From NCBI GenBank assembly GCA_038128845.1, contig JAYPKL010000002.1, positions 5,604 to 69,603 on the forward strand: 64,000 nucleotides of DNA. Direction: 5' to 3'. The position numbers and the translations under genes are program-made. Source of the stretch: Candidatus Woesearchaeota archaeon (GTDB lineage: Archaea > Nanobdellota > Nanobdellia > UBA10117 > ARS21). Positions 3,403-38,478 of the stretch are shown piece by piece (the stretch's first letter is position 1; each line of letters opens with the position of its first letter). Under the pieces are notes generated by a model. That model did not search any database. It was given only the letters and a program-made list of their open reading frames with translations, and was not told where the DNA came from.

Positions 3403-4602
3403 ATGCTTCCTGAAATGAATATTGGATTAATTGGTCATGTAGATCATGGTAAAACTACTTTAACTTCTGCATTATCAGGAAAATGGACTGATACTCATTC
3501 TGAAGAACTTAAAAGGGGAATTACAATAAAATTAGGATATGCTGATATATCAATATATTCCGATGGTAAAACTTTTACAACACAAGAAAAAAATAAGTCT
3601 GGTAAAAAAAATAAATTAATAAGAAAAATATCTTTAATTGACGCTCCCGGACATGAAACTTTGATGGCAGTAATGATGTCAGGTGCAGCAATTATGAATG
3701 GTGCAATACTCATGGTTGCAGCAAATGAAGAATGTCCTCAACCTCAAACTGTTGAACATCTTACAGTTCTAAAAATACTTGGAATAAAAAATATAATCGT
3801 AGTACAAAATAAAGTTGATTTAGTTTCAGAAAAAGATGCTTTAAAAAATTATAATCAAATTAAATCGTTTGTTAAAAAAACACTTGGATTTGAAGTTCCA
3901 ATAATTCCTCTTAGTGCTCAGAGAAATGTTAATATAGACATATTACTGGAAGCAATTGAAAACTTTTTACCAACACCAAAAACACTTGAAAAGGAAGAAT
4001 TAAAGTTTACAATTGCTCGTTCATTTGATATAAATAAACCGGGAACAGAAATTCAAAAAATGACTGGAGGTATACTTGGTGGAACAATTAATTCTGGTAA
4101 ACTAAAGATAAATCAAGAAATATTAATCTCTCCTGGTCTAAAGGAGGATAATAAAGGAGTAATTTCATGGAAACCAATAAAAACAAAAATAACAAACATT
4201 GTATCTGGAAGCGAATCTGTTAAAGAGAAGGGTCCAGGAGGATCTATTGCAATTGAAACTGAACTTGATCCAAGTTTATCAAAAACAGATAGTTTAGTTG
4301 GTAATATTGTTACAACAGTAAGTCAAGCTCCAAAAATTTTAAGAGACTTGAACTTGAAAACAAATTTATTTGAAAATGTTCTTGGAACAAAAGAATCAAT
4401 AAAAATAAAACCGATTCAACCCAAAGAAATATTAGTTATTACTTCCGGAACTGCAACAACATGGGGTGTATGTTCCGTTACAAAAAAAGGAGTTTCTATA
4501 AACTTGAAAAAAGATATTGCTGCAGACAAGGGTGATGTTGTATCTATCTCAAGAAAATTTGGCGCAAGATGGCATCTTATTGGATATGGAGAAATTTTAT
4601 AA
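3403..4602 (+). CDS. eif2g: Translation initiation factor 2 gamma subunit (aIF2-gamma)
   Basis: G1 motif GHVDHGKTTL, DAPGHE, NKVD, then beta-barrel domains II/III. ORF-track start 3388 is TTG; first ATG is at 3403 (MLPEMNIG...). Confidence 0.85.
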   Translation: MLPEMNIGLIGHVDHGKTTLTSALSGKWTDTHSEELKRGITIKLGYADISIYSDGKTFTTQEKNKSGKKNKLIRKISLIDAPGHETLMAVMMSGAAIMNGAILMVAANEECPQPQTVEHLTVLKILGIKNIIVVQNKVDLVSEKDALKNYNQIKSFVKKTLGFEVPIIPLSAQRNVNIDILLEAIENFLPTPKTLEKEELKFTIARSFDINKPGTEIQKMTGGILGGTINSGKLKINQEILISPGLKEDNKGVISWKPIKTKITNIVSGSESVKEKGPGGSIAIETELDPSLSKTDSLVGNIVTTVSQAPKILRDLNLKTNLFENVLGTKESIKIKPIQPKEILVITSGTATTWGVCSVTKKGVSINLKKDIAADKGDVVSISRKFGARWHLIGYGEIL

Positions 4603-4623
4603 GTTAATAGTATTATTATAATT

Positions 4624-4992
4624 ATGAAAATTAAAAAAAATCACTTAAAAATTATTTTTATTATATTTCTTCTAACTTGTTCATTATTATATTTTACTAC
4701 CAAAGAAGATCCATATAAAACTTCACTAGCACAATATATGACAGAAAATAATGATGAAATGTACGGTGCCTTCTGGTGTGGAGCTTGTGCAAAACAAAAA
4801 GAAATCTTTGGTAATTCATTTAAACATATAAATTACATTGAATGTGATGAGCGAGGGAAAGATGCTCAACCTGAAAAGTGTAAAATAAATAATGTAGAGG
4901 CGTATCCTACTTGGATTATTAATGGTGAAAAAATTGTGGGTGTAAAAACAATAGAAGAATTAGCATCTTTATCAGGCTTTAATGAAAATTAA
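4624..4992 (+). CDS. Membrane-anchored thioredoxin-fold protein (CxxC)
   Basis: N-terminal hydrophobic anchor followed by YGAFWCGACAKQKEIFG (a CGAC redox motif in thioredoxin-like context). 122 aa. Confidence 0.45.
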   Translation: MKIKKNHLKIIFIIFLLTCSLLYFTTKEDPYKTSLAQYMTENNDEMYGAFWCGACAKQKEIFGNSFKHINYIECDERGKDAQPEKCKINNVEAYPTWIINGEKIVGVKTIEELASLSGFNEN

Positions 4993-5692
4993 AACAATTG
5001 GTATTTCCACAGCAAAGTATAGAATTTTTAATTCCGGAGCAGAAAAAGCACCATATATGATAAGAGATTTGATTAACGGATCTTTTGAAATATATAATTT
5101 TGAAGAAGAAAAATCTCAAATACAAATAAATAATAAAATAACTAAAATATACAAAAAATATCTAAATGAAAATATATTAACAATTGGAGGAGATCATTCT
5201 ATAACATATCCGATACTTAGAAGTCAAGAAAAAAAATTCGATGTATTTTGGTTTGATGCTCATCCGGATACATATGATAATTATAAAGGAAAATACAGTC
5301 ATGCAACAGTATTGAAAAGAGTTTCCGAATTACCAAATTGTAATAAAGTTTACTTAATTGGACACAGAGTTGAAGAAAAACCTGAAAAAATATTTTTAGA
5401 TGAAAGTAAAAAAGTTATTAGAACTGATTATAAAAACCTAAATAAAATTAAATCAGATAATTATTATATCTCTCTGGATTTAGATGTTTTAGATCCTTCT
5501 GTTATGCCTTCAGTTGATCACGCATTACCCAACGGAATGAGTTATGAAGATTTAATTAAATCATTAGATATACTAATTAAACCATCTTTATTTGGTATGG
5601 ATGTTGTAGAATTTGTACCGGATAATGACTCAACTGGAAAAAGTGAAAAAATTATAAAAAAACTTTTTAGTTACCTTAATAAAAAATTATGA
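4982..5692 (+). CDS. Arginase/agmatinase-family ureohydrolase (agmatinase-like)
   Basis: Mn-binding motifs of the arginase fold: GGDHSITYP, DAHPD, SLDLDVLDP. 236 aa. Stop TGA overlaps the next gene's start. Confidence 0.6.
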   Translation: MKIKTIGISTAKYRIFNSGAEKAPYMIRDLINGSFEIYNFEEEKSQIQINNKITKIYKKYLNENILTIGGDHSITYPILRSQEKKFDVFWFDAHPDTYDNYKGKYSHATVLKRVSELPNCNKVYLIGHRVEEKPEKIFLDESKKVIRTDYKNLNKIKSDNYYISLDLDVLDPSVMPSVDHALPNGMSYEDLIKSLDILIKPSLFGMDVVEFVPDNDSTGKSEKIIKKLFSYLNKKL

Positions 5693-6330
5693 ATATAATT
5701 CATATGAAAAAAGCTCTAATAACGGGTGGAAGTTCAGGATTAGGTTATGAATTAGTAAAAATACTAAATTCAGAATATAATTTTACGAATATTTCTAGAA
5801 CTAATTGCGATATTGCCGAACAAAACATATTATTGGATTTGAGTAATTCTAAAAAATTAGATACATTATTGGAAGAAATAGATTATGGTTATGATTTAGT
5901 TGTACTAAATGCAGGAGTATTACATTGGAAAAAACTGGGTGATTTTTCAAATAAAGAAATATTAGATGATTTTAATATAAATATAATAAGTCAAATAAAA
6001 ATTCTAAATAAAATAATAAAAAAATTAGAAAAAAAAGAAGCAACTATTATAATAGTTGGATCTGTTGCATCTTTCTATCCAATCCATGAAAAAGGTTCTG
6101 TTTATATCTCAACAAAGTCTGGAGTTAGAAGTTTAATTGATTCTATAATAAAAGATCATCCTAAAATTAGAACAATCGGAGTTCATCCTCGAGGTTTTAC
6201 ATCTTCTTTGCATAAAAAAAGTGGAACGAAAAGAAAAAATAAAAATAGACCATCTTCAAAAAATATTGCAGAAAAAATTATTGATATTCTAAAAAATAGT
6301 AATGATAATACCAACATTATATTGGATTAA
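5689..6330 (+). CDS. Short-chain dehydrogenase/reductase (SDR) family protein
   Basis: N-terminal Rossmann motif ALITGGSSGLGYEL, NAG motif (LNAGV), catalytic YxxxK (YISTK). Confidence 0.55.
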   Translation: MNIIHMKKALITGGSSGLGYELVKILNSEYNFTNISRTNCDIAEQNILLDLSNSKKLDTLLEEIDYGYDLVVLNAGVLHWKKLGDFSNKEILDDFNINIISQIKILNKIIKKLEKKEATIIIVGSVASFYPIHEKGSVYISTKSGVRSLIDSIIKDHPKIRTIGVHPRGFTSSLHKKSGTKRKNKNRPSSKNIAEKIIDILKNSNDNTNIILD

Positions 6331-6359
6331 TATTATATACTATAGAATACATAAAAATT

Positions 6360-7661
6360 ATGGCAATAAATACTCTGATTATGGGTGCAGCCGGAAGAGA
6401 TTTTCATAATTTTTTAACATACTTCAAAAACAATAAAATGTATAATGTAAAATGTTTTACTGCAAATCAAATACCAGGTATATCTGGTAAAAAATTTCCC
6501 AAAGAATTATCCGGATCATTATATAAAACTGGAATTAGTATTTATGATGAAAAAGATTTACCTAAATTAATAATATCAAAAAAAATTGAATTATGTGTTT
6601 TATCATATTCGGATCTTTCTAATTCTGAAGTAATGAATAAAGTTGCATATATTCAAAGTCTTGGATGTGATTTTATGCTATTAGGTCCAAATTCAACTCA
6701 AATTAAATCCAAGAGACCAATAATATCGGTTACTGCAGTAAGGACGGGATGTGGAAAATCTCAAGTAACAAGTCATATTTCAAAATTACTTCAAGACAAA
6801 AAAATAAAACATTCCATTATACGACACCCTATGCCTTACGGAATATTAAAAAATCAAATATACCAAAAATTTGAAAATTTATCTGATCTTAATAAATATG
6901 AATTAACAATAGAAGAAAGAGAAGAATTTGAAAAGCATTTAGAAAATGGAGCCATAGTTTATTGTGGAATTGATTATGATAAAATAATTAAAGATGCGGA
7001 AAAAAATTCTTCTATAATCATCTGGGACGGTGGCAATAATGATTTTGAATTTTATAAATCTGATTTAAAAATAGTTGTTTTAGATCCTTTGAGAGAAAAT
7101 AATGAATTAAACTATTATCCGGGACTAACGAATTTGATAAGAGCAGATATAGCCATAATAAATAAAATAAATAGTTCAAATAAAAAACAAATTAATAATT
7201 GTATAAATAATATTAAAAAAAATAATAAAAATTGTAAAATTATTTTAACAGAGTCAATTTATGAACTTCCAAAAACTAATAAAAAAAATATACTTGTTAT
7301 TGAAGATGGTCCTACTACAACTCACGGTAATATGAATTATGGTGTTGCATTTTTAGCAGCAAAAAAATTAAATAAAAAAATAATAAATCCAAAAAAATTT
7401 GCTACCGGATATTACAAAGAAGTTTATAAAAAATATAATAATTTAGAAAATATAATTCCTGCAATAGGTTATAGTAAAAATCAAATTATAGATCTTAAGA
7501 ATATTATTAATAAAATAAAACCGGAAGCAATATTTTCTGGATCTCCAATAAACATTAAAAAATTATTAAATTTAAATTATGAAGTTTTTGATATAAATTA
7601 TAAAATAAGAGATAAAAACAACTTAATTAAAAAAAATATTTATTCTTTTATTCGACGATAA
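6360..7661 (+). CDS. P-loop NTPase-like protein (COG2403 / cyclic 2,3-diphosphoglycerate synthetase-like family, tentative)
   Basis: 433 aa. N-terminal MGAAGRDFHNF and a central Walker-A-like TGCGKSQVT. Family assignment is from memory of motif layout only. Confidence 0.3.
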   Translation: MAINTLIMGAAGRDFHNFLTYFKNNKMYNVKCFTANQIPGISGKKFPKELSGSLYKTGISIYDEKDLPKLIISKKIELCVLSYSDLSNSEVMNKVAYIQSLGCDFMLLGPNSTQIKSKRPIISVTAVRTGCGKSQVTSHISKLLQDKKIKHSIIRHPMPYGILKNQIYQKFENLSDLNKYELTIEEREEFEKHLENGAIVYCGIDYDKIIKDAEKNSSIIIWDGGNNDFEFYKSDLKIVVLDPLRENNELNYYPGLTNLIRADIAIINKINSSNKKQINNCINNIKKNNKNCKIILTESIYELPKTNKKNILVIEDGPTTTHGNMNYGVAFLAAKKLNKKIINPKKFATGYYKEVYKKYNNLENIIPAIGYSKNQIIDLKNIINKIKPEAIFSGSPINIKKLLNLNYEVFDINYKIRDKNNLIKKNIYSFIRR

Positions 7662-8098
7662 GAAGGTCTATCTGAATTTATTTGTGGAAAAATCTTTATT
7701 TCGTTTATAAAATTATTATTTTCTATTCTGCTAAGTAATTTTTCTAAATGACTTTCTCCTTCAATTGATAACTCATTTTCTCCCTTTATAAATTCTGCAG
7801 TATAGTTGTTAATTTCTGAATCTAAATTTGGACGAATAATAACTTTTCCTAAAAGTTCTTTCTCCATATCCAGAGATTCGTATAATCTTGAACTCCATTC
7901 TGAAAAATATTTAGAAATTAAATTATTACCATTTGGATTATAGAATACATTAGCCTCAGTAAATTGTTCATTTGAACGAGGTGGTTTTCCAGATATAATT
8001 GGTTTAACTTCAAATTTAAATCCTTTAATTAAACTTCTCCAAATTTTACTTTGAGTTTTATCTCCAATTTGGTGTAATTGATATGCTGTTAATGACAT
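7640..8098 (-). CDS. Hypothetical protein (152 aa)
   Basis: ORF with no motif I can assign. Sits in an operon-like arrangement with the aminotransferase and permease genes. Confidence 0.3.
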   Translation of the reverse strand: MSLTAYQLHQIGDKTQSKIWRSLIKGFKFEVKPIISGKPPRSNEQFTEANVFYNPNGNNLISKYFSEWSSRLYESLDMEKELLGKVIIRPNLDSEINNYTAEFIKGENELSIEGESHLEKLLSRIENNNFINEIKIFPQINSDRPSYRRIKE

Positions 8099-8134
8099 CT
8101 TATTTTCTATACAAAAATATTTTTAAAACTTATT

Positions 8135-9280
8135 TTATGTATTTTTTTTAATACGATCTAATGCTTTTACAATATTATCTTTGGATGTTGCATAACTCAT
8201 TCTAATATGATTTTCTCCTGATTTTCCAAATTCTGTTCCAGGAATAGTTACAATTTTTTTATTTTTTAGTAAATTATCAGAGAATTTTTTAGAATTTGAT
8301 CTTATATTTGGAAAAACATAAAATGCACCTTGTGGCATTAAAGTCTTGTAACCAATTTTATTTAAACCATTAGTAATCAAGTTTCTTCTTCTATTATATT
8401 CAATTAACATTTTTTTTGTATATGCTCTTCCATAATCTAATGCATATTCTGCCATATATTGTGAAATAGTTGGTGCAGAAATTGTTGTGTTAATATGCGT
8501 TTCAGTCATCTCTTTAATTATATTACTTGGTCCAACTGCATAACCCACTCTAAAGCCGCACATTGCATGAGATTTGGAAAAAGATCTAAGAGTAATGGCA
8601 TGTTGTTTCATCCCATTTAATTTAGCAAATGAATTAAATTTGTTATTATCATATATAAGATCCACATAACATTCATCTGACATAACGAATAAATTATTTT
8701 CAACAACTAAGTCAGATAACTCTTCTAACATTTTTTTTGAGTAAATCATTCCAGTGGGGTTAGAAGGATTACATAAAATTATACCTTTGGTTCTCTTTGT
8801 TATAGTTTTTCTTATATCTTCCACATTTAAGTCAAAATTATTTTCCATTTTTGATCCCACTTCTTTTACTTTTCCATTCAAGAATTGTATAGTTGGTATA
8901 TATCCCATGTAACTTGGAGTGGGTAAAATTACTTCATCGTTAGGATCTATTGTTGAAATCAAACCCAACATTAGCGCTTCTTGTGATCCCGATGTAACAA
9001 CAACATTATTTGTATTATAATTCAAATTGTAGTTTTTTGATAGATCTTCAACAATCTTTTTTTTCAAACTTTCTCTACCACCGGGTGGAGAATAATGAGT
9101 CGAGTAACCTTTTGATAATAATTTGCTTCCGTAATCTAAAATTCTTTTACTTGTTTTGAAGTCGGGTTCACCTGGACCTAAAGAAATAACACTTTTATCT
9201 TCTACTGATCTTTTAAGATAAGATCCTACTATACCATGACGCATATTCTTTTCACGTTTTGAAAGTATAATCTTACTCAT
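8135..9280 (-). CDS. PLP-dependent aminotransferase, class I/II (aspartate aminotransferase-like)
   Basis: PLP-lysine region SFSKSHAMCGFRVGYAVGP, length 381 aa, fold-type I layout. Confidence 0.75.
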   Translation of the reverse strand: MSKIILSKREKNMRHGIVGSYLKRSVEDKSVISLGPGEPDFKTSKRILDYGSKLLSKGYSTHYSPPGGRESLKKKIVEDLSKNYNLNYNTNNVVVTSGSQEALMLGLISTIDPNDEVILPTPSYMGYIPTIQFLNGKVKEVGSKMENNFDLNVEDIRKTITKRTKGIILCNPSNPTGMIYSKKMLEELSDLVVENNLFVMSDECYVDLIYDNNKFNSFAKLNGMKQHAITLRSFSKSHAMCGFRVGYAVGPSNIIKEMTETHINTTISAPTISQYMAEYALDYGRAYTKKMLIEYNRRRNLITNGLNKIGYKTLMPQGAFYVFPNIRSNSKKFSDNLLKNKKIVTIPGTEFGKSGENHIRMSYATSKDNIVKALDRIKKNT

Positions 9281-9308
9281 AATAGAATTATAGTTTGTAA
9301 TATATAAG

Positions 9309-10577
9309 TTATTTCTTAACTAATTCATAAGAACCAAGGCCAATTAAAGTAAGTAAGAATCCGCCCATTAATATTTCGTGAGATAAGTACATCAAGAAAA
9401 ATCCTGAACTTAATATTCCAAAAACTGCAGGAATTGGTATATTATTGTAGCTGAGTGGAACTCTAAATCCTTTGCTTATTTTTTTCTCTTTTTTACGTTT
9501 CATAATTAATGAATAGTTAACTAAAATAAAAGTTAAAAAAATTGTAAAGTTTGTCAGTTCTGCGATCTTGCCTATGTCTTCAATTAACAAAAATAACGAT
9601 GTTAGAATAAAAACGGTCAGTACAGAATTTGCCGGAGTTTTTCTAGTTTTAGAAACTTTTGATAAAAATTTTAGTTTTTTATAATATTTTGAAATTCCAT
9701 ATAGTTGTCTAGATCCTCCAATTAGAATTATTAAAACAGTGTTACCGGTTGAAAATAATGCTATAATTGAAAGAATAAGAAATGCTTTTGAACCCATTAC
9801 AATAGCTGCTGCATCTGCAAGTGGTGAAGAAGAAGCCGCTAATTGATCCCACGGCATAATCGATACAGCAGATATTGCTACTAGAATATAAATTATAGTT
9901 GATATGATTATTGAATAAATAATTGCCTTTGGAATAACTTTAGAAGGATTTATTGTTTCTTCACTCAATTTGGCAATACTTTCAAATCCAATATAAGCAA
10001 AAAATACTAATGATGCTGCAGAAAATATATTTGAAAATCCTTGAGAAAAATCAAAATAATTTACATTACCAAGATAGTTATATCCTAATGCTATTATAAT
10101 TAGTAATCCAATTGTTTCCAATATAGTAAAAAATATGTTGGCCCAAGCTGCTTGCTTTATATCATAATAACTCAGAAAAGAGAAAATAGAAATTAAAATA
10201 AATGCAATTAAAATTGGTTTAATCGCAACACCAATTAATTTTAGAAAATATCCTGAAAATCCTATTGCTACTGCGCTTGCAGAAATTATTGATGTTGAAA
10301 CAATAAGCCAACCCGTTAAATAAGCTAATCTATCTGAAAAAAAAGATTTTACAAAAGAATATTCTGCAGAGTCATTTGATTTACCTGATGTAAATTCAGC
10401 ATAACTCATTCCGGTAAAAATTGCAATTAAACTTGCTAATAAAAAACTTAACCATACTGCATTACCTGCAACACCAGATGCAACACCTATCAAAACATAA
10501 ATTCCGGCACCCAAAATTATTCCGATACCCATTAATGTTGTTTCTAACAAACCTAATGATCTTTTTAACTCAGACAT
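9309..10577 (-). CDS. Amino acid permease (APC superfamily)
   Basis: 422 aa with about 12 predicted TM helices and an N-terminal GxGIxxGAGIYVLIG motif typical of APC transporters. Confidence 0.7.
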   Translation of the reverse strand: MSELKRSLGLLETTLMGIGIILGAGIYVLIGVASGVAGNAVWLSFLLASLIAIFTGMSYAEFTSGKSNDSAEYSFVKSFFSDRLAYLTGWLIVSTSIISASAVAIGFSGYFLKLIGVAIKPILIAFILISIFSFLSYYDIKQAAWANIFFTILETIGLLIIIALGYNYLGNVNYFDFSQGFSNIFSAASLVFFAYIGFESIAKLSEETINPSKVIPKAIIYSIIISTIIYILVAISAVSIMPWDQLAASSSPLADAAAIVMGSKAFLILSIIALFSTGNTVLIILIGGSRQLYGISKYYKKLKFLSKVSKTRKTPANSVLTVFILTSLFLLIEDIGKIAELTNFTIFLTFILVNYSLIMKRKKEKKISKGFRVPLSYNNIPIPAVFGILSSGFFLMYLSHEILMGGFLLTLIGLGSYELVKK

Positions 10578-10605
10578 AATTATTATGTCAATTTTATTTT
10601 ATAAA

Positions 10606-11913
10606 TTATATAGATGAAATATCTAAATCTCTTATTAAGGCAGAAGGAACTTCGGCAGGTATACTTGATTCCCAGTTAACAATTGATTCTTTCTTATTCG
10701 ACATTTCTTCAATATTTTTTAATACGTCTAACATATTTCCAGAAATTCTAATATCTTTAACAGAATTAATTATTTTTCCATCTTTAACTACAAATATTGC
10801 ATCTCTTGGAAGTAATGAAAAATCTCCAGTCATATAATTTTGATATCGATGATACCAAGAATTTGTTATTATTAATCCGTTATCCATATTTGAAATTAAT
10901 TTATCTGTTGATTTTTTTCCAATTGGTACAACTAAATTTGTTGGGCTGACAGATAATATATTTGAATTTCCTGTTGCTTTCAAATCATATTTCAAATTAT
11001 GTGATGTAGTTGTAAGATAATTCTTCAATATACCCGAACCAATTATTTCTGTAGGTTTTGTAGGTCGTCCTTCATAATCAAAAGGTATTGAACCAAATCC
11101 ATTATTTAAATTTCCAACATCGTATAACGAGAAATTTTTTGATGAAAGGGAATTATCTTTTTTATTTGACAAAAATGAAAATCCTGCTAAAACATTATCA
11201 TAACAAGCAGATCTTCCAACTTCATTTATCAAATTAGCAAATGACATTGGATAAAATACACAATCATATTTTCCAGATTTTAATTTTTCAGGATAAATTG
11301 CTTCTTTAGCTTCATTAACTGCTTCAAGTATTACCGGTCTATAATTAAAATTTTTCTTTGAAGTTGAAATCTTAACTTTGTGAGAAGATGCATCTTCTTT
11401 CATTATTCTAGTTGATAAATTAATATTTGAATAATTATAAGATCCTTCAAAACCTTCTGATGTAATTTTTTCTACAGTTCCCCATCCGTGTTCTAAAACT
11501 CCTCCGACTCTATCTGCACCTTTTTGTAAAGAAAGATCAATAACATCTCTCAATATACTTGATACATTTAGATTTTTTATATCTGGATCGTAAATTGATT
11601 TAATTTCTTTGAACTTTTTATTTTCATTATAAATGCCCAAATAATTTTCATTAACTGGATTGTTTTTTGTAAAATTTATTAGATTCTTAATTTGTGACTT
11701 TACATCATTATTGATATTTATATCTGTATTTCCTACTTTGTAACCATTGCCCGATTTCATTGCAATAAAAACATCATAAGAATCTTGGTTCCAATTTTTA
11801 TTTATTACAACATTATTATTGGCAATTTTTGATTGATTCGAAGTTCCGTTATTTCTTGTAATAACATAATGATCAACATTTCCTTCAATTATTTTTCGAA
11901 TTTCTTGAATCAT
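10606..11913 (-). CDS. TldE/PmbA-family metalloprotease subunit
   Basis: 435 aa. Paired and overlapping with a TldD homolog. TldD/PmbA fold pattern (GSG...T..HN). Confidence 0.6.
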   Translation of the reverse strand: MIQEIRKIIEGNVDHYVITRNNGTSNQSKIANNNVVINKNWNQDSYDVFIAMKSGNGYKVGNTDININNDVKSQIKNLINFTKNNPVNENYLGIYNENKKFKEIKSIYDPDIKNLNVSSILRDVIDLSLQKGADRVGGVLEHGWGTVEKITSEGFEGSYNYSNINLSTRIMKEDASSHKVKISTSKKNFNYRPVILEAVNEAKEAIYPEKLKSGKYDCVFYPMSFANLINEVGRSACYDNVLAGFSFLSNKKDNSLSSKNFSLYDVGNLNNGFGSIPFDYEGRPTKPTEIIGSGILKNYLTTTSHNLKYDLKATGNSNILSVSPTNLVVPIGKKSTDKLISNMDNGLIITNSWYHRYQNYMTGDFSLLPRDAIFVVKDGKIINSVKDIRISGNMLDVLKNIEEMSNKKESIVNWESSIPAEVPSALIRDLDISSI

Positions 11914-13367
11914 CTGTGCTTAATTCCTCTCAATAATAAACTTGGACCGCCCATTGAAACAGGTACTCCTTGCATTGGTTGACCTTTACCGCATGTAGCA
12001 GATGTTAAACCATATGAAGCTTTATTTCCCACTCCGTCAACTGACGTCCACAACTTTAATGTATCAACTTCAAGATCCGGAAATAATAATGGATGTTTAA
12101 TCTCTCCATTTTCTATTAAATATGCTTCACTGCCTTTTGCTTTGAAATTATATCTTTTATCATCAATATTCCATTCCATAAAATTTTTCATATAAATTCC
12201 TTTTTTTACATCTTTAATTAAACTAGATTCTGATGCTTTACCGGGTTTTACAAACGTATTAGACATTCTAATTAATGGTTCATTTGAATTATTATCAATT
12301 CTTGCAGATGCATTTGATTTAACTCCGAATTGTTTTGCAGTTTGCCGGTCATGATAAAATTCATTTATCAATCCGTCTTTTACTAAAACTCTGTTTCTGG
12401 CTTTTTGACCTTCTTCATCATATAAATAATAACCAGCAACATTTTCAATTGTTGGATCATCATATATGGTTACATAATCTGAACCGACTCTTTGACCCAT
12501 CATATCTTTTTTGATAAAGGATTCTCCTGCTTGTGCAGATTCTCTTCCTAAAATTCTATCTGCTTCATAAGGATGACCAACAGATTCATGGACCATTATT
12601 CCTGCAACTTCGCTGCCAATAACATAATCATAAACTCCTGATTTAACTTTTTTAGCAGTCTTCAAGTTGGTTGTTATAGTGTCGACTTCTCCAGAAATTA
12701 CTTTATCTAATTTCCAATTATCAAAAATATCCCAACCGCCTACGCCGTTATAAAAATTCATTCTTTGTGCAGTCTTACTATTTGATTTGCATGTTAAAAA
12801 ATAAAAAAAATCAATATATGGAATTGTAGAATTAATTGATGTGCCTTCGGTATTCATATATGATTTTTTAATTAAATTTGTACTTAAAGATATATTTGAA
12901 TTTAGAACATTGTCTCCTTTCAAATTAGAGATTATAGGTTTTAATCTATTGATATAGGAGTCAATATCTGAAAAATTAATTTTTGTTTTTTGTTTAACTG
13001 TATAATTTTTTTTATTAACTTCTCCCTCTGCTAATTCAATATCGTTTCTATTTATTGAATTTACAGATTTTACTAATTTAACTTGATCTTTTATTTTTTT
13101 TGTAATAAATTGATTTGAGAAATCGCTATTAATGAAAACTGATGACATTGAATTTCCAATTTTAAATCTTACATACAAAGATTTATCTGATCCAATAAAA
13201 TTGTTCGAAAGTACATTATTTTCATAACTTATACCCGATCCATTTGATTCAACAAATCTTGCTTCGGCCCATTCAACACCTAATTCATTACATAGATTAA
13301 TTGAGAACTTCAAAAGATCATCCATAGATATATTGTAGGGAAATAAATATAAAATAGTTGTTATCAA
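11910..13367 (-). CDS. tldD: TldD-family zinc metalloprotease
   Basis: HExxxH motif HESVGHPYEADR and a C-terminal GxC motif. 485 aa. Overlaps the TldE gene by 4 nt. Confidence 0.75.
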   Translation of the reverse strand: MITTILYLFPYNISMDDLLKFSINLCNELGVEWAEARFVESNGSGISYENNVLSNNFIGSDKSLYVRFKIGNSMSSVFINSDFSNQFITKKIKDQVKLVKSVNSINRNDIELAEGEVNKKNYTVKQKTKINFSDIDSYINRLKPIISNLKGDNVLNSNISLSTNLIKKSYMNTEGTSINSTIPYIDFFYFLTCKSNSKTAQRMNFYNGVGGWDIFDNWKLDKVISGEVDTITTNLKTAKKVKSGVYDYVIGSEVAGIMVHESVGHPYEADRILGRESAQAGESFIKKDMMGQRVGSDYVTIYDDPTIENVAGYYLYDEEGQKARNRVLVKDGLINEFYHDRQTAKQFGVKSNASARIDNNSNEPLIRMSNTFVKPGKASESSLIKDVKKGIYMKNFMEWNIDDKRYNFKAKGSEAYLIENGEIKHPLLFPDLEVDTLKLWTSVDGVGNKASYGLTSATCGKGQPMQGVPVSMGGPSLLLRGIKHR

Positions 13368-13411
13368 AAAGTAACTAATAATCTATTTATTATAACAAAC
13401 ACTATTTTTAT

Positions 13412-14365
13412 ATGACTGTTCAAAATTTGACCATAAAAGGAAAATTTAATGAAAATTATATCAAATCAACCATATTAGATATATATCTTAAATGGAAAAT
13501 ACCCGACAATATTGAAGAGATTCTTATAATTGATGATAAAAAACATTTCTCTGCAATATCTAGAAGAATCCCGAAACACCTAAGAAAAGAGTTTAAAGAA
13601 ACTTATATGAATGACCCAACTTCATTATCGATAACTGCAGGTAATTTTGATTTAATTATTATATCTATTACTCAACCAAATGAACAATATCTTAAGAAAA
13701 ACAAGAAGGCACTAGAAGGACTTATAGCACATGAATTAATGCATATTGAATTAAGACGTATGGGTCTTGATTTAGATATTGAAAATATTGGTCAAAGAGT
13801 ATTTCAGAAGTTTATTAAAAAAAATCTAAATCGTTCTCAATCAATAAAATACAAACATGTATTTGAAGAAATAAAAAATCAATGTAGCTATGTTCTAAAA
13901 GATATAGTTACAAATGCAAATTTAATTGAAATAGGATTTGGAGACGAAATGTTTGAAGATTATTATCAATATTATATTAATCAAAAAACTCTGAAAACTG
14001 CTAACTTGAATATTAGTGCAGTTAAAAATTCGAATCTTTGTTCAACTGTGTCTAAGAAAAAATGTAAAGAACTTTATGAAAAACAATTAGGAGTTGATGT
14101 TGGAACAAGTATTCTTTTTGAACTTAGTTTGTTACCAGTCATAATACCTTACGGAAAAAAATGGATAAACACAAAAGAAAGAAAAATTAAACATTTAATC
14201 AATTTTATTGGAGACAATTACGAAATATTAGTAAGCGATATTGCTAAAGATGCTGATAGACTTATTAAAAAAAGCTTTACTTCAAAATTTGATAAAAAAT
14301 ACTTTGAATATTTCTTTGAATATTTTTTCAAAATGGCACATAAAAAAATGCTAATTGACCAATAA
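13412..14365 (+). CDS. Hypothetical protein with HExxH motif (putative zinc-dependent hydrolase)
   Basis: 317 aa, AHELMHIELRR. No further family-level assignment is possible. Confidence 0.3.
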   Translation: MTVQNLTIKGKFNENYIKSTILDIYLKWKIPDNIEEILIIDDKKHFSAISRRIPKHLRKEFKETYMNDPTSLSITAGNFDLIIISITQPNEQYLKKNKKALEGLIAHELMHIELRRMGLDLDIENIGQRVFQKFIKKNLNRSQSIKYKHVFEEIKNQCSYVLKDIVTNANLIEIGFGDEMFEDYYQYYINQKTLKTANLNISAVKNSNLCSTVSKKKCKELYEKQLGVDVGTSILFELSLLPVIIPYGKKWINTKERKIKHLINFIGDNYEILVSDIAKDADRLIKKSFTSKFDKKYFEYFFEYFFKMAHKKMLIDQ

Positions 14366-14399
14366 ATAACGAATAAATTTATTAATTAAGTCAATTTTA

Positions 14400-14639
14400 T
14401 TGAATATGGCAAGTGTAACAATCTATACTACTAATGTGTGTCCCTGGTGTCACAAAGCAAAAGACTTTTTTGATGAAAATGGAATTAAATACTCTGAAAA
14501 AAATGTACAACAAAATAGAGAGTATCAAGCAGAATTACTGGAAAAATCTGGTCAACTAGGTGTACCTGTAATAACCGTTGATGATGAAACTGTTATCGGT
14601 TTCAATAAAGAAAGATTAAAGAAGATATTAGACTTATAA
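14400..14639 (+). CDS. Glutaredoxin-like protein
   Basis: 79 aa, CPWC active site (TTNVCPWCHKAKDFF), thioredoxin fold. Confidence 0.65.
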   Translation: MNMASVTIYTTNVCPWCHKAKDFFDENGIKYSEKNVQQNREYQAELLEKSGQLGVPVITVDDETVIGFNKERLKKILDL

Positions 14640-14643
14640 TACT

Positions 14644-15882
14644 ATGGCCAATCCTTTTGATCAAGCAAAGAAGCAAATCTCTTCTGCATCTAAATTATTA
14701 AAATTAGATTCAGAAACTACTGCTAAATTAATGATTCCAGATAATTTTCATTCATTCTGGGTCAGAATAAGACTTGATAATGGACGAAGAGCAAGATTTA
14801 GAGGTTTTAGATCTCAATATAATAATGCATTAGGCCCTTACAAAGGAGGAATTAGATTCCATCCTGAAGAAACTGCAGACACTGTACTTGCTCTATCTGC
14901 ATGGATGACTTGGAAATGTTCTCTTGCCGGAATACCTTATGGTGGCGGAAAAGGCGGAATTATTTGTAATCCCAAAGAATTATCTAAATCAGAACTTGAA
15001 AGACTTTCAAAAGAATATTCAAGAAAAATTTCAAAATTTATTGGAGTAGATCGAGATATACCTGCTCCTGACGTTTACACAAATCCTCAAATAATGTCTT
15101 GGATGTTAGAAGCTTATGAACAAAAAATGAATATTTCTTCTCCAGTAACTTTTACAGTAAAACCAATTGAACTTGGTGGTCATACGGTATGAATTGAATC
15201 GACCGGTTTAGGTGTGGCAATAAATGTTAGAGAAGCTGCCAAAAAATTAAAATTAAATATGAAATCAACAAAAGTTGTAATTCAAGGATTTGGTAATGTA
15301 GGTCAATATGCTGCCAAACATCTTGACAAAATGGGCGCAAAAATAATTGCAATATCGGATTCATCGGGAGGACTTTATGATTCTAAAGGAATTGATGTCT
15401 CTAAATTAATCAAATATAAACAAGAAGGAAATTCACTAATTAAATACAAAAACTATTCAAAAATAGATAATGAAAAATTACTTACACTAAAATGTGATGT
15501 TTTAATTCCATCTGCATTAGAAAATGCAATTGACAAATATAACGCGGATAAAATCGACACAAAAATAATTGTTGAAGGAGCAAACGGACCAATAACAACG
15601 GATGCAGATAAAATTCTTTTTGAAAAAAGTATTATTGTAGTTCCAGATATTCTTGCAAATTCGGGCGGAGTCGTTGGAAGTTATTTTGAATGGCTAATGA
15701 ATCGTTCAGGAGAAAGTTGGGAATTAAAAACCTATAACGCAAAATTAGATAAAATGTTAACAGATTCTTTTTCAAGAGTTTATAAAAAATACAACGAACT
15801 AAAAAATATTGACATGAGAAAAACAAGTTATATGATTGCAATAGAGAGAGTTGTAAAAGCAATGGAGCTTAGAGGAAGATGA
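14644..15882 (+). pseudogene. gdhA: Glutamate dehydrogenase interrupted by an in-frame TGA (15190-15192)
   Basis: One continuous frame encodes the GDH dimerisation domain (KGGIRFHPEETAD, GIPYGGGKGGI) and the NAD(P)-binding domain (GFGNVGQYAAKHL). The TGA sits where the conserved Arg of GGSxGRxEATGxGV is expected (ELGGHTV*IESTGLGV). The downstream half has only a GTG at 15214. Confidence 0.6.
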
Positions 15883-16781
15883 TTTATGATGTTATAATTA
15901 TAGGCGGAGGTGCAGCTGGTCTAGGAGCCGCTCTTTATTCGGCCAGATATAATCTAAAAACTTTAATTATTGCTAAAGAATTTGGCGGTACTGGAAATAT
16001 TGCACACAAAGTAGATAATTGGATTGGAGAACCTGGAATTTCTGGACTAGACTTAATGGACAAATTTATTGCACATGTTGATTCTTATGGTGTAGAAAAA
16101 GTCGAAGACGAAATTAAATCTATTAAAAAAAATAAAGAAATTTTTGAAGTTCAAGGAAAGAAAAAATATTCTGCTAAATCAATTATATACTCTCTAGGTA
16201 TGGTTCATAAAGAATTAGGAGTGGAGGGAGAAAAAGAATTTGCAGGAAAAGGAATTCATTATTGTTATACTTGTGATGGTCCAATTTATTCTGGAAAAAA
16301 TGTAATTATGGTCGGCGGAGGAGATTCTGCGGGATGGGGAAGTGTATTTCTTTCAGAACATGCAAAATCAGTTACAACGATGGTTCGAAGAGATATGATG
16401 AAAGCAGAACCAATTACTGTTAAACAAATGGAAGATAATCCGAAAATAAAAATAAAATATAATACAGAAATAAAAAAATTCTACGGAGACACTTTACTTG
16501 AAGGAGTAATTTTGAAAGATGGAACTGATATGAAAATAGACGGAGTATTTATTGAAATTGGTCATTTGCCGTTAAATCAAATTGCAAAAAATTGTAAAGT
16601 TAAATTAGATAAGTCTGGATTTATTAAAGTTGATAATCATCAAAAAACTAATATCAAAGGTTTTTGTGCAGCAGGAGATATAACAACAAGACATACTCTA
16701 AAGCAATTTATAACATCTGCATCAGAAGGATCGGTGGCAGCAGAATCAATTTATAATTTTATTAAAAATAAAAAATGGTAA
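15879..16781 (+). CDS. trxB: Thioredoxin reductase-like FAD/NAD(P)H disulfide oxidoreductase
   Basis: FAD motif DVIIIGGGAAGLGAALY, redox-active CYTCDG, second Rossmann motif VIMVGGGDSA. 300 aa. Confidence 0.65.
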   Translation: MIYDVIIIGGGAAGLGAALYSARYNLKTLIIAKEFGGTGNIAHKVDNWIGEPGISGLDLMDKFIAHVDSYGVEKVEDEIKSIKKNKEIFEVQGKKKYSAKSIIYSLGMVHKELGVEGEKEFAGKGIHYCYTCDGPIYSGKNVIMVGGGDSAGWGSVFLSEHAKSVTTMVRRDMMKAEPITVKQMEDNPKIKIKYNTEIKKFYGDTLLEGVILKDGTDMKIDGVFIEIGHLPLNQIAKNCKVKLDKSGFIKVDNHQKTNIKGFCAAGDITTRHTLKQFITSASEGSVAAESIYNFIKNKKW

Positions 16782-16978
16782 AGAATTATTTAATTATAGG
16801 TTATGGTATTTTAATTGCTGCAATATTATTTAATTTAGTTTTATCAAAGTTAGGTATTTCTTCTTGGTATGATTTTTTATTAGGTAATAAAGATAAATAT
16901 ACCTCTTATGTTGTTTTATTTATTGTATATCCGTTAATTTTAGGTTATGTTGCTCAAAAAGCTATTGAATTAATTTAA
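16775..16978 (+). CDS. Small membrane protein (67 aa)
   Basis: Two predicted TM helices. No assignable motif. Confidence 0.3.
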   Translation: MVKNYLIIGYGILIAAILFNLVLSKLGISSWYDFLLGNKDKYTSYVVLFIVYPLILGYVAQKAIELI

Positions 16979-18304
16979 ATTTTCTTCAATATACTTTTTG
17001 ATATCAAATTTTGATTTACAACCATTATAAGACATAAATCTTATTTTTCCAAAAACCGGTCTTTCAAACCATGCCCGATCATGAAGGCCTCCTATGGACC
17101 AAGCACATCCTACGTAACCATTGGGATCTCTTCCATCCAATTCATATTTATCATTTAGATAAATTGCAATCTTTAACGCATCTTTAGGCGATTTGGTCCA
17201 TTCAAGAATTTTTTTAGCCCAATACATTCTCATATATCCGTGCATTTTTCCTTTGTTTACCATTTCCATTTGTGCAGCATTCCATAAATCGTCGTGTGTC
17301 TTTGCATTTTCAAATTGTTTTAATGAATAAATATATTCTCGTTTATCTTTTGTATGTTCATTATGAGATTTTTTAGCCCAATCTGGAAATCCATCAAATG
17401 TGTCGTACTTTTCATTATAATAACAATAATTATCTGAAAGTTCTCTTCTTACAAATGCTTCTTCAATAAATGCATCTTTATCTGGTTTTTTTGCATTTGC
17501 TTTACTTACTTCGTAGACTGCTCTTTGGGGGGCCAACATTCCATAATGAAAATAAGGGCTTAAATGAGAAACTTGATTTAAAGGAGGATTATTTCTATTT
17601 GTTGAATATCCGTCTAAACGATTTTTGATGAATTCTTTTAGCATATTCATTCCTTCATCTTCTCCGGATTTTATCCAATCAACTGGTTTTACATTTTTGT
17701 CAACATTTGCTTTCATTAAATTTTCAAAATTATTTTTGTTTTTTAATTTGTTATAATTATTTTTCTTTAGTTTTGGAAAATCAGAAATATATTCGGGAAA
17801 TAGTCTATTTAATTTTGGTCTTATTGTATATGCTGCAAATTCTTGTTTTGGAGAAGTGATCCATACTGGTACTATATTATGAGCATCTACTTGAATAAAA
17901 GGAATTTTTAATTTTAAATTTAAATCATTGACCCATTTTTTTGCAATTCTAAGTGGTGAAAAATCAGTTACAACTAAACCAACATTATTTGTTTTTATGA
18001 ATTTAGAAATATCTGGAACAAAAGATTTTGTTAAAATAAAAAGAGGTATATTTAATTTTTCTAAATTAGTTTCTAGTACTTTTAATCCTTCTAACTTGAA
18101 CTTATGTTGTCTTAATCCTCCTCCGAGATATCCTATATCTAAATTATATACAACATATAATGGAACTTTGTTTTTTTCAGCAAGATCTGATGCATGCAAT
18201 AATGCCCAATTGTCTTGAGATCTTATTTCTCTATTACACCAATAAAGTATGGCTCCGGAACTATATTCTAAATCGTTTAATTTTCTAATTCTGTTTTCGT
18301 TCAT
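16970..18304 (-). CDS. phr: Deoxyribodipyrimidine photolyase, class II
   Basis: 444 aa. N-terminal region matches class II CPD photolyase (LYWCNREIRSQDNWALLHA), C-terminal FAD-binding region (GYMRMYWAKKILEW, GGLHDRAW). Confidence 0.7.
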   Translation of the reverse strand: MNENRIRKLNDLEYSSGAILYWCNREIRSQDNWALLHASDLAEKNKVPLYVVYNLDIGYLGGGLRQHKFKLEGLKVLETNLEKLNIPLFILTKSFVPDISKFIKTNNVGLVVTDFSPLRIAKKWVNDLNLKLKIPFIQVDAHNIVPVWITSPKQEFAAYTIRPKLNRLFPEYISDFPKLKKNNYNKLKNKNNFENLMKANVDKNVKPVDWIKSGEDEGMNMLKEFIKNRLDGYSTNRNNPPLNQVSHLSPYFHYGMLAPQRAVYEVSKANAKKPDKDAFIEEAFVRRELSDNYCYYNEKYDTFDGFPDWAKKSHNEHTKDKREYIYSLKQFENAKTHDDLWNAAQMEMVNKGKMHGYMRMYWAKKILEWTKSPKDALKIAIYLNDKYELDGRDPNGYVGCAWSIGGLHDRAWFERPVFGKIRFMSYNGCKSKFDIKKYIEENLN

Positions 18305-18921
18305 TTTAATAAGTATAAATCAATGAAACCGAATACTGCTTTTGAAAAAATTGGAAGTATTACAAAAAGAACATTGAAAGTTTCTAGAGATATAAAATTT
18401 AGCGGATACAAAATGAATACAAGAGGATATGCTAACCACTGAATTGTGAAATATTTTAATAAAAAATCATATTTCTTTTTGTTAACTGCCAGTTTGTAAA
18501 GATCTACCCAGATTATTTTTATAATTATTGCAAGTAAAAATAGACCTAAGTAAAAATATCTTAAGTCTGAAAAAACATCGGCAAATAATCCGGTTAATAT
18601 CACAATAGGTTGTAGAATTAATAGAGATAACATAAGAGTATAATTTCCTTTTTTATTTAGAATCGCTGTAAAGTAAAGTGCCATTAAAAGTAGTGGAGTT
18701 GAAACTACCCAATCAAAATATCTTGCAAGATCAGAAATTTCTGTTTGATAAGCAATAAATAAATACATCAAACCAGACCAACCTACAATTGTTGAATGTA
18801 AAAGTATGAAGTGTTTTGGAATTTTCCATTTTTTACCTAAATATAGAAATGAGGCTAGTGAAGTAAACATTACTAATGAGTAAAACATTTCGGCATTCAT
18901 AAAATATTTGTAGTTAATCAT
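18301..18921 (-). CDS. Microbial (type-1) rhodopsin-like 7TM protein, unusually short (206 aa)
   Basis: Seven hydrophobic helices. Helix C motif RYFDWVVSTPLLLMAL (compare bacteriorhodopsin RYADWLFTTPLLLLDL). Helix F motif WLAYPLVF (BR WSAYPVVW). Helix G motif PIFSKAVFGF (BR DVSAKVGFG) containing the Schiff-base lysine. Confidence 0.55.
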   Translation of the reverse strand: MINYKYFMNAEMFYSLVMFTSLASFLYLGKKWKIPKHFILLHSTIVGWSGLMYLFIAYQTEISDLARYFDWVVSTPLLLMALYFTAILNKKGNYTLMLSLLILQPIVILTGLFADVFSDLRYFYLGLFLLAIIIKIIWVDLYKLAVNKKKYDFLLKYFTIQWLAYPLVFILYPLNFISLETFNVLFVILPIFSKAVFGFIDLYLLK

Positions 18922-18946
18922 TTATAAGATTAATTAGATAAATTCT

Positions 18947-20344
18947 ATGGAAATATCTGTTATTCTTCCGGATCAAATAAATAAAAATAATCCTGTGCTT
19001 AAATTAAAAAATAAAATAATTATTCTTGAAGATAAAAGATATTTTGATGATTATAAATATAACAAAAAGAAATTAATTTTTCATCGAGCTTCTATGAAAT
19101 ATTTTTATGAATATCTGAAAAAGAGCGGACATAAAGTAGAATACAGCGAAAATAGTTTAGAAGATTATACTAAAGAAAAAATACATTTAATGGACCCAGT
19201 TAACAAAAAAATAACAAATAAATTCAAAAATTTAACAATATATGATAACGTAAATTTTCTTAATACTACAAAATACAATAAAGAATATTTTTCTAAAAAT
19301 AAATTTTTTATGGCAAGTTTTTATAAAGATCAAAGAAAAAAATACAAATTACTTTTGACATCTTCAGGAGGACCTGAGGGAGGAAAATGGAGTTATGATG
19401 ATCAGAATAGAAAAAAATTACCAAAATCAGAAAAAGTTCCAGATTTTAGAAAATTTAATAGTGAATATGTTAAAGAAGCAATTTCTTATGTTAATAAAAA
19501 ATATAAAAACAATTATGGAACTTCTGAAAATTTTTTTTATCCTACAACACACGAAGAAGCATCAAAATGGTTTGATGAATTCTTAAAAATTAGATTTGAA
19601 AAATTTGGACCTTATGAAGATGCAATATCTGATAAAGAATTTTTAATTTATCATTCTCTTTTGAGTCCTTTATTGAATGTAGGCCTAATTGATGTAAATT
19701 ATGTTTTAGATAAAGCAATTCAAGTACAAAAAAAACAAAAAATACCTATTAATTCTGTTGAAGGTTTTATTAGACAAATAATTGGTTGGAGAGAATTTAT
19801 ACGAGCAGTTTATGTTGAACTTTCTGAAAAACAAATAAACAATTTTTGGAAATTTAAAAATAAAATTAAAGAAAATTTTTGGAATGGAGAAACAAATATT
19901 TTACCTGTAGATAATGCAATAAAAAAAGCAATAGATTATGCATATAATCATCATATTGAAAGATTGATGGTTTTAGGAAATTATATGCTAATTACTGAAA
20001 AGAATCCGGATGAAGTTTATAATTGGTTTATGACAATGTATATTGATGCGTATGAATGGGTAATGGTTCCGAATGTTTATGGCATGAGTCAATATGCTGA
20101 CGGAGGATTAATTACTACCAAACCTTATCTTTCCGGTTCAAATTATATTCGTAAAATGTCTGATTACAAAAAAGAAGCTTGGTGCGATATTTTTGACGCA
20201 CTTTATTGGAGATTTAATATTAAATATGAAAAAGTTATTTCGAAGAATGCAAGATTATCTATTGTTGGAGCATTACTTAGAAAAATGAGTGATGAAAAGA
20301 AAAAAGGATACATTAAAATAGCTGAAAATCATATTAATAAATAA
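18947..20344 (+). CDS. Photolyase/cryptochrome-related protein (COG3046-like)
   Basis: 465 aa. C-terminal half reads HHIERLMVLGNYMLI...WFMTMYIDAYEWVMVPNVYGMSQYADGG, resembling the FAD-binding helical domain of the photolyase/cryptochrome family. Divergently arranged relative to the rhodopsin and photolyase genes. Confidence 0.5.
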   Translation: MEISVILPDQINKNNPVLKLKNKIIILEDKRYFDDYKYNKKKLIFHRASMKYFYEYLKKSGHKVEYSENSLEDYTKEKIHLMDPVNKKITNKFKNLTIYDNVNFLNTTKYNKEYFSKNKFFMASFYKDQRKKYKLLLTSSGGPEGGKWSYDDQNRKKLPKSEKVPDFRKFNSEYVKEAISYVNKKYKNNYGTSENFFYPTTHEEASKWFDEFLKIRFEKFGPYEDAISDKEFLIYHSLLSPLLNVGLIDVNYVLDKAIQVQKKQKIPINSVEGFIRQIIGWREFIRAVYVELSEKQINNFWKFKNKIKENFWNGETNILPVDNAIKKAIDYAYNHHIERLMVLGNYMLITEKNPDEVYNWFMTMYIDAYEWVMVPNVYGMSQYADGGLITTKPYLSGSNYIRKMSDYKKEAWCDIFDALYWRFNIKYEKVISKNARLSIVGALLRKMSDEKKKGYIKIAENHINK

Positions 20345-20345
20345 G

Positions 20346-20738
20346 ATGATTGAAGCAATGATTAACTTTATGGGTTATTTTTTGGTAATTGTTGCTATTT
20401 TGAAAATAATAGATTGGAAAAAATTTTCGGAAAATTTTTCAAAATATGACTTAATTGCAAAAAGAAGTCAAGCTTACTCTTTTTCTTATCCAATTATTGA
20501 ATTGGCAATCGGAATAAGTTTTTTGAATAATTTTTATGTTAGAGAAGTTGCAATTATTTTAGCAGCAATTATGTTTATTGGAGTAACTGGAGTTTTGAAG
20601 GCATTAAAGGAAAATAAAAAAGTTCAGTGTGCATGTTTAGGAAAATTAGGGCATAAATTAAACATCAAATTAACACAATTTACTTTATTTGAAGATATAG
20701 TTATGGGACTTATGGCCTTAGCAATTTTATTACTTTAA
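20346..20738 (+). CDS. Small integral membrane protein (DoxX/MauE-like, tentative)
   Basis: 130 aa, 4 TM helices, CAC motif in a loop (VQCACLGK). Confidence 0.3.
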   Translation: MIEAMINFMGYFLVIVAILKIIDWKKFSENFSKYDLIAKRSQAYSFSYPIIELAIGISFLNNFYVREVAIILAAIMFIGVTGVLKALKENKKVQCACLGKLGHKLNIKLTQFTLFEDIVMGLMALAILLL

Positions 20739-29665: not shown

Positions 29666-30097
29666 ATGGAATTAACAAAAGAAATTATTGAAAGAATTTA
29701 TTCACTTATAGAGAAGTCTAAAACTGACGGAAAGATAAGAAAAGGAGTAAATGAAGTTACTAAAAGCCTAGAAAGAGGCGAAGCAAAGTTATCAGTTTCT
29801 GCTGAAGACATCAGTCCCGCAGAAATAACAGCACACTTACCAACACTTGCAAAAGAAAAAGGAATTGTTCATGTTACTGTTCCTTCAAAAACAGAACTTG
29901 GTGCAGCAGCAGGTTTACCTGTGGCAACAGCATCAGTTGCAGTAGTAAGCGGTGATTCAAAATTAATTGATGCATTACTAAAAGATATTAAAATTATAAC
30001 TGAAGGTAAAGCAAAACCTAAATCAGAAGAAAAAACTGAAGAAGCTCCGGCAGAAGAAAAAACTGAAGAAGCTCCGGCAGAAGAAAAAACTGAATAA
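29666..30097 (+). CDS. rpl7ae: Ribosomal protein L7Ae with a Lys/Glu-rich repeat tail
   Basis: VNEVTKSLERGEAKL ... VPSKTELGAAAG is the L7Ae/L30e K-turn-binding core. C-terminal extension EEKTEEAPAEEKTEEAPAEEKTE. Confidence 0.85.
   Translation: MELTKEIIERIYSLIEKSKTDGKIRKGVNEVTKSLERGEAKLSVSAEDISPAEITAHLPTLAKEKGIVHVTVPSKTELGAAAGLPVATASVAVVSGDSKLIDALLKDIKIITEGKAKPKSEEKTEEAPAEEKTEEAPAEEKTE
30026..30094 (+). repeat. 27-bp perfect tandem direct repeat (2.6 copies) within the L7Ae 3' end
   Basis: gaagaaaaaactgaagaagctccggca occurs at 30026-30052 and 30053-30079, with a partial third copy to 30094. It encodes EEKTEEAPA repeats. Confidence 0.8.
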
Positions 30098-30348
30098 TGG
30101 CAACAAATGAATCTAACTTCGACGAAAGTGGTAAATTACCTAGAGCAGTTGCTGCAGAAATAACTGAATTAATTGCAAGAGAAGGAAGTAAACAAGTAGT
30201 TACTTTAGTTAGATGTAAAGTACTTGAAGGAAAAGATTCTGGAAAAATTTTAAGAAGAAATGTATATGGTCCAACTCGTATTGGAGACGTAATCATGCTT
30301 ACTCAAACTGAAATTGAAGCATCCTCTAACAAAGGAGGAAGAAGATAA
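30097..30348 (+). CDS. rps28e: Ribosomal protein S28e
   Basis: AEITELIAREGSKQVVTLVRCKVLEGKDSGKILRRNVYGPTRIGDVIMLTQTE matches the S28e OB-fold. Start overlaps the L7Ae stop. Confidence 0.75.
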   Translation: MATNESNFDESGKLPRAVAAEITELIAREGSKQVVTLVRCKVLEGKDSGKILRRNVYGPTRIGDVIMLTQTEIEASSNKGGRR

Positions 30349-30548
30349 TGGTTAATTGTTCATTTTCAGGAAAAGAACTACCAAAAGGGAAAGGTAGAAT
30401 GCTTATAAGAAATAATGGAAGAATTCTATATTTTGTAAATAGTAAAGCAATGAAAAACTTTCTCAAATTAGGAAGAAAAAGTCTTAAAACCAGATGGACT
30501 GCAGATTATAAAAAAAGTAAAGAAATTAGATTATCAAATAAAAAGTAA
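30348..30548 (+). CDS. rpl24e: Ribosomal protein L24e (Cys-less variant)
   Basis: Position and length fit the archaeal L7Ae-S28e-L24e cluster. MVNCSFSGKELPKGKGRMLIRNNGRILYFVNSKAMKNF aligns to L24e, but three of the four zinc-ribbon cysteines are replaced. Confidence 0.6.
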   Translation: MVNCSFSGKELPKGKGRMLIRNNGRILYFVNSKAMKNFLKLGRKSLKTRWTADYKKSKEIRLSNKK

Positions 30549-30723
30549 TGAATAATAATTTAGAAAACCTTGAATCTATACTAAATAAAAATAAGTTGAT
30601 ATTAAAATCAAAACGATTAACAAATGATTCTATATTATATCAACTGGCACATGAAAAATATTTCATATTGTATAAAACTCCTTATAATAAAAACCTTTAA
30701 TTAATTACAAAATTTAACTTATT

Positions 30724-31044: not shown

Positions 31045-31093
31045 TGAAACATTTAAAAACACATAATATAACATATGAATAGAGAGAAATAAA

Positions 31094-33148: not shown

Positions 33149-33149
33149 A

Positions 33150-37460: not shown

Positions 37461-37472
37461 TATAATTTATAT

Positions 37473-38444: not shown

Positions 38445-38478
38445 AAAATTATTTTTTATATTTTATTTATAAAATTAT

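Follow-up and report, generated by a model that had tools for sequence, protein, structure and literature searches.

The window, by which we mean the whole 64,000-nt stretch of DNA that was analysed, has about 27% GC, is 94% coding, and contains a glutamate dehydrogenase (GDH) gene whose reading frame is broken once by an in-frame TGA. The frame runs from an ATG at 14644 through the mid-gene TGA at 15190-15192 to a terminal TGA at 15880-15882. The gene and its parts, in window coordinates, are:

14644..15882, forward strand: GDH reading frame (Glu/Leu/Phe/Val dehydrogenase family), 412 codons with one interruption, PF02812 and PF00208
14644..15192, forward strand: N-terminal fragment ORF, 182 aa (P0150)
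15190..15192, forward strand: in-frame TGA at codon 183, in place of a conserved Arg; ancestral codon AGA
15259..15882, forward strand: C-terminal fragment as given in the public deposit, 207 aa (P0129)
15880..15882, forward strand: natural GDH stop TGA, overlapping the ATG (15879) of a thioredoxin-reductase-like gene in an ATGA coupling

A GTG at 15214 is an alternative start of the C-terminal fragment, giving 222 aa. In Pfam, the N-terminal piece matched PF02812 (ELFV_dehydrog_N; E 1.6e-52) and the C-terminal piece matched PF00208 (ELFV_dehydrog; E 5.7e-77) in the identical frame, and no second interruption of that frame was found besides the TGA at 15190-15192. These matches bear out the original prediction that both GDH domains share one frame and that the TGA is its sole break. 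The window GDH is 97% identical in amino acids to an intact 412-aa protein (P0001) and 98.5% identical in nucleotides to the intact orthologues of three sister-strain contigs (L082, L083 and L084), and its homologues end at the residue that precedes its own natural stop (LRGR). The Gly-rich motif with the catalytic Lys (GGGKGG) in the N-terminal domain is present as PYGGGKGGI, in invariant alignment columns.

By domain content, the window gene is an ordinary member of the hexameric GDH family. The closest solved structures are the hexameric GDHs of Thermococcus litoralis (1BVU), T. profundus (1EUZ) and Pyrococcus furiosus (1GTM), to which an intact sister allele (P0122) aligned over its full length with E values of 1e-118 to 1e-122 and with which it shares the two-domain architecture of PF02812 and PF00208. 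Unlike these enzymes, the window copy has a stop at a conserved Arg and Val at Gly172 and Gly182, and its clade has GGH in place of GGS. The affected motif is TGKP...GG.xGR, in which G172, G182 and R183 are replaced in the window by V, V and the stop. Both glycines are conserved in 144/144 homologues, and codon 183 encodes R in 143 of the 144 and K in the remaining one, so that the TGA does fall, as predicted, on a conserved Arg position. The His at codon 180 (15181-15183) is a different matter: GGH is found in the Woesearchaeota GDH clade and GGS in most others (H in 48/144 homologues, S in 95/144), which marks GGH as a clade trait and no sign of decay.

Directly downstream of GDH and the thioredoxin-reductase-like gene, a cluster of light-related genes occupies 16970-20344:

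16970-18304, reverse strand: DNA photolyase
18301-18921, reverse strand: bacteriorhodopsin-family protein (PF01036 on the L082 orthologue)
18947-20344, forward strand: photolyase-related DPRP protein

This cluster suggests a DPANN archaeon of sunlit water. An apparent length difference of 271 nt relative to L082 at 19995-20367 looked like an indel and proved to be a scaffold gap in L082, where positions 15353-15452 are 100 consecutive Ns; in this region the DPRP C-terminus is complete in the window.

The closest homologues of the GDH come from Woesearchaeota and Nanoarchaeota MAGs, and among GTDB species-representative genomes there was no relative closer than 61% identity. Clustering at 90% identity gathered 25 members from NCBI, JGI, ENA and Logan; all 13 of the listed members that span the affected segment read SSPGTFTGKPIELGGHTGRTES, where the window has SSPVTFTVKPIELGGHTV*IES. 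The original prediction had proposed orthologous GDH genes in sister genomes as a check, and this comparison found the gene intact with AGA or AGG at codon 183 in six of six close relatives. The sister-strain contigs L082, L083 and L084 are gapless and syntenic with the window over up to 15 kb, and a more distant relative, L001, likewise has AGA or AGG at this codon. The change is therefore AGA to TGA, an A>T transversion, and not the single C-to-T transition from CGA that had been proposed.

Nor is the TGA a lone change, as had been supposed. It is one of six substitutions private to this assembly that lie within 49 nt (15146..15194, forward strand), as seen against L001, L082, L083, L084, L085 and L086; four missense changes and one synonymous change beside the stop had been missed. 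The six are:

15146, G>T: G168V
15158, G>T: G172V
15186, T>G: synonymous
15188, G>T: G182V
15190, A>T: R183*
15194, C>T: T184I

They fall at codon positions 2, 2, 3, 2, 1 and 2, and five of the six are nonsynonymous. This ratio (5:1) departs from that of the window's other private SNPs (20:63; Fisher P 0.006), as does the share of third-position changes, which is one in six (position 3 vs others, P 0.005). Five of the six are changes to T (P 0.013), and five are transversions (P 0.08). With about 3e-4 differences per nt as the same-strain background, the Poisson probability of at least six differences in a given 49 nt is about 1.6e-14; the patch therefore arose as one event and not by gradual decay. 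We rejected clustering as evidence by itself, since SNP clusters are common in all these strains, where they are almost all third-position and synonymous and probably come from recombination. What distinguishes the patch from such ordinary clusters is its nonsynonymous, to-T character.

Private changes of the window lineage in GDH number 10 nonsynonymous to 5 synonymous, compared with 15:59 in 12 neighbouring genes (P 0.0007) and with 0 nonsynonymous to 5 synonymous among the sister strains' private GDH changes. Beyond the patch, the nonsynonymous changes are conservative ones at positions that vary, and the intact L086 allele shares those of codons 250, 266 and 344, so that there is no gene-wide relaxation of constraint; radical changes are restricted to 15146-15194. 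As the invariance of Gly172 and Gly182 in the homologue alignment suggests, read-through of the stop would probably still give an inactive product. The patch changes have never been exposed to selection, which fits an artefact and a brand-new mutation alike.

An independent assembly of what appears to be the same strain was particularly informative. It was reached by an exact look-up of the neighbouring hypothetical protein at 13412-14365, which bears the window-private change Q279K, and it is a Logan contig of run SRR26337526 (L086). L086 aligns without gaps to window positions 3412-16315, with 18 mismatches in 12,904 nt and 5 mismatches in about 11.7 kb outside GDH. A second Logan contig of the same run (L089) is identical to window positions 30065-41095 at 11,029 of 11,031 nt, so that the two contigs together differ from the window at 7 sites in about 22.7 kb outside GDH. 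There are no mismatches between L086 and the window 3' of 15247, and L086 thus has the same strain-specific SNPs as the window across the 3' half of GDH (15384-15846). At the six patch sites, L086 reads G, G, T, G, A and C, which is the wild type at every site, and its GDH is an intact 412 aa. To judge from these sequences, the same strain assembled INDEPENDENTLY carries an intact GDH, although L086 could come from a near-identical sister population instead of the same DNA as the MAG. An uninterrupted ORF of about 410-425 aa is thus found in L086 and in all relatives and is lacking in the window. The original prediction held that reads showing CGA at this site would reveal an assembly error, and the result comes close to that: what the independent same-strain assembly has is indeed an Arg codon, but it is AGA.

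The mismatches between L086 and the window are themselves unevenly placed, with 13 of the 18 in one segment:

14901..15247, forward strand: strain-variable GDH segment, with 13/18 window-vs-L086 mismatches over 12.9 kb

Within this segment alone, L086 has SNPs that elsewhere belong to L083 and L001 (among them those at 14901, 15180 and 15213), and it has two private amino-acid changes there, K115N and S116T. This mixture indicates that co-occurring strains have recombined or that the assembly took a mosaic path through GDH. Together with the concentration of mismatches, it marks this part of GDH as strain-variable, a place where assemblies take different paths.

Searches of public data were consistent with a truncated allele that is private to its source. 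In a collection of about 15 billion proteins, P0150 and P0129 each occurred on one contig only, the 86,662-nt NCBI contig, and exact look-ups of the truncated products returned that source contig and no other. Intact GDH alleles occurred on many contigs from NCBI, JGI, ENA and Logan. When JGI metagenome contigs were scanned with a pattern that either allele would match, a single contig turned up, and it had the wild-type sequence. The exact "repaired" version of the window GDH was absent from the protein collection. The patch is thus private, clustered, contradicted by a same-strain assembly and unfiltered by selection, and privacy together with contradiction by an independent assembly of the same strain is a feature of local assembly errors in MAGs.

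Given these results, we consider it probable that the TGA arose from a local fault of consensus or assembly, at a place in a Woesearchaeota MAG where strains vary. The TGA would then belong to a 49-nt stretch of wrong consensus in one metagenome-assembled contig, produced by a local assembly or base-calling fault where co-occurring strains differ in GDH and the assembly is prone to bubbles. The real gene would be an intact 412-codon GDH with GGA, GGA, GGA, AGA and ACT at codons 168, 172, 182, 183 and 184. Among possible technical causes are the poor-quality tail of a read and a graph path that the assembler kept without support. The bias of the patch between G and T and towards T may resemble known Illumina base-calling biases. 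Counting against this explanation, the contig is 86.7 kb long, the window is otherwise clean (94% coding, with no other broken gene) and it differs from L089 at 2 positions in 11 kb; general low quality is accordingly not the cause. De Bruijn assemblers also normally prune single-read errors.

Errors of this kind have been described. Local assembly errors in MAGs are stretches of consensus without perfect support from even one read (Chen et al., 2020, Genome Res, PMC7111523); they corrupt protein genes in public databases, and 13 were found in one 1.13-Mb genome (PMC7111523). The patch resembles them in being a short consensus stretch that corrupts a protein gene, in one assembly and in a strain-variable region; the class itself is defined by lack of read support (PMC7111523), and the patch fits it in the features that a comparison of assemblies can show.

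A sister MAG has a comparable lesion. Gene calling on GCA_038110725.1 (L083, contig JAYNKA010000008.1) gave TldD/PmbA as two pieces of 265 aa and 130 aa, and the break is a private AAA>TAA change (K131*) that lies in a 49-nt patch with L115I, V117L and I125F:

L083:6756-6804, equivalent to window positions 11523-11571, reverse strand: TldD/PmbA patch

Read on the coding strand, most changes in this patch are transversions to T, and its span and character match those of the GDH patch. The window, L082 and L086 each have an unbroken TldD/PmbA. The 100-N scaffold gap in L082 points to a short-read scaffolding pipeline as the source of the sister MAGs.

The patch may instead be real, and we regard this as possible though on balance unlikely. 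In that case GDH codons 168-184 would have been hit in a subpopulation by one event of clustered multi-nucleotide mutation, for instance in error-prone patch repair or through a templated switch, and the MAG would have caught a newborn pseudogene. The TGA does stand in the deposited 86,662-nt NCBI contig (with P0129 and P0150), which is long and otherwise clean, the GDH of the window lineage has the excess of nonsynonymous changes described above, and the patch in the sister MAG could reflect a real mutational process. There is also a hint, if only that, in the repeats at the site: several of the changes perfect short local repeats, as templated mutation would. They perfect the 6-bp inverted repeats TCATAC.G.GTATGA and TTTTAC.A.GTAAAA and create a TGAAT-TGAAT tandem repeat. 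Matched random sets of N>T changes, however, perfected repeats equally well in 6-9% of trials (P 0.06-0.09), and since this signature is not significant we make no claim of templated mutation at quasi-palindromes or direct repeats. Also against a real null allele are its absence from every independent assembly searched and the lack of gene-wide decay, the changes outside the patch being conservative and in part common to intact L086. Like a unitary pseudogene formed by nonsense mutation, the window GDH is a single-copy gene, otherwise conserved, with an early stop; unlike such a pseudogene, it has no gene-wide relaxed constraint, its lesions lie within 49 nt, and the independent assembly of the same strain lacks them.

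A real patch would amount to an ordinary null allele private to one strain, of further interest only for the mechanism of clustered mutation. A bolder version would have the 49-nt patch come from one clustered event of error-prone or templated patch synthesis and, taken with the TldD/PmbA patch, would point to recurrent mutation showers in natural marine Woesearchaeota populations that kill genes in one step. This we hold to be improbable.

Programmed recoding of UGA, whether by selenocysteine insertion, read-through or a UGA-sense genetic code (table 4 or 25), would yield a full-length GDH from the sequence as deposited, and we give it almost no credence. In its favour are two halves that lie in frame in a gene that is otherwise well conserved, with no other support. 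TGA is a normal stop in the window: of the 79 ORFs that reach 100 aa or more, 18 end in it, and an ATGA stop/start overlap joins eight pairs of neighbouring genes, the pair of GDH and the thioredoxin-reductase-like gene among them. When ORFs were called again across the window with TAA and TAG as the sole stops, so as to expose mid-gene TGAs, no other long conserved ORF had one (0 in ORFs of 1101, 820, 742 and 664 codons), and those that remained were confined to spurious antisense or overlapping frames. These observations confirm that TGA is a genuine stop here, as originally stated, and they rule out table 4 and table 25, with TGA ending ORFs normally and no scattered in-frame TGA. Selenocysteine fares no better. 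The search for a downstream SECIS-like element was negative, with no match to SECIS or any other Rfam element in 14400-17000 at the gathering threshold or at E<=10. Folding of the 90 nt that follow the TGA is no more stable than that of shuffled sequence (z = -0.07), and the sole tRNA in the window is Arg-TCT, with no tRNA of anticodon UCA and no suppressor or Sec tRNA. Moreover, the site aligns with Arg, whereas selenoprotein UGAs are expected to align with Cys or Sec, and TGA was found at codon 183 in no orthologue, that of same-strain L086 included. A read-through product would still have Val at two invariant Gly positions. The gene thus resembles known UGA recoding systems (selenoproteins, codes 4 and 25) in having an in-frame UGA within a conserved enzyme and differs from them in that its UGA is a normal stop at an Arg site, without a SECIS and without conservation. 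Of the outcomes that the original prediction had left open, a recent pseudogene and a sequencing or assembly error both retain support, with error favoured, and rare recoding is rejected.

A functional split gene, in which the N-terminal substrate/dimerisation domain and the C-terminal NAD(P)-binding domain are translated separately and assemble into an active enzyme, is just as poorly placed: the break does lie near the boundary of the two Pfam domains, and an in-frame GTG (15214) and ATG (15259) follow the stop, but a restart at these codons would remove conserved residues (ESTGxG), the invariant glycines adjoining the break are mutated, inspection of the sequence found no convincing ribosome-binding site 5' of either restart codon, and the split is private to one assembly. 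We looked for relatives with two separately translated half-genes, which the original prediction had named as grounds for abandoning it, and saw none. Among more than 140 relatives there was no split GDH, the shorter proteins being contig-end fragments only; every full-length relative is a single ORF of about 412 aa, which rules out a conserved split. Recoding and a functional split gene are both effectively excluded.

With a local assembly or consensus error as the preferred explanation, this Woesearchaeota population should be credited with an intact GDH. The main value of the case is one of caution. A premature stop in a MAG can mimic gene loss or recoding, and in this case GDH would be wrongly dropped from the metabolic reconstruction of a DPANN archaeon. 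Comparison with an independent assembly of the same strain resolves the question without reads.

The comparison of assemblies also turned up differences elsewhere. It stops short of the window's last third, where an exact look-up of a 740-aa protein (53492-55711) gave no match. The only two differences from L089 in 11 kb, at window positions 31201 and 31368, are both in the proteasome alpha-subunit gene; one is synonymous and the other is L92Q (CTA>CAA). Dense radical differences between the window and a further contig, L088, were seen in a 98-aa hypothetical protein at 41629-41925 on the reverse strand (among them S47F, L46P, R27L and I21R). There are no stop codons in it, and it may be a fast-evolving gene.
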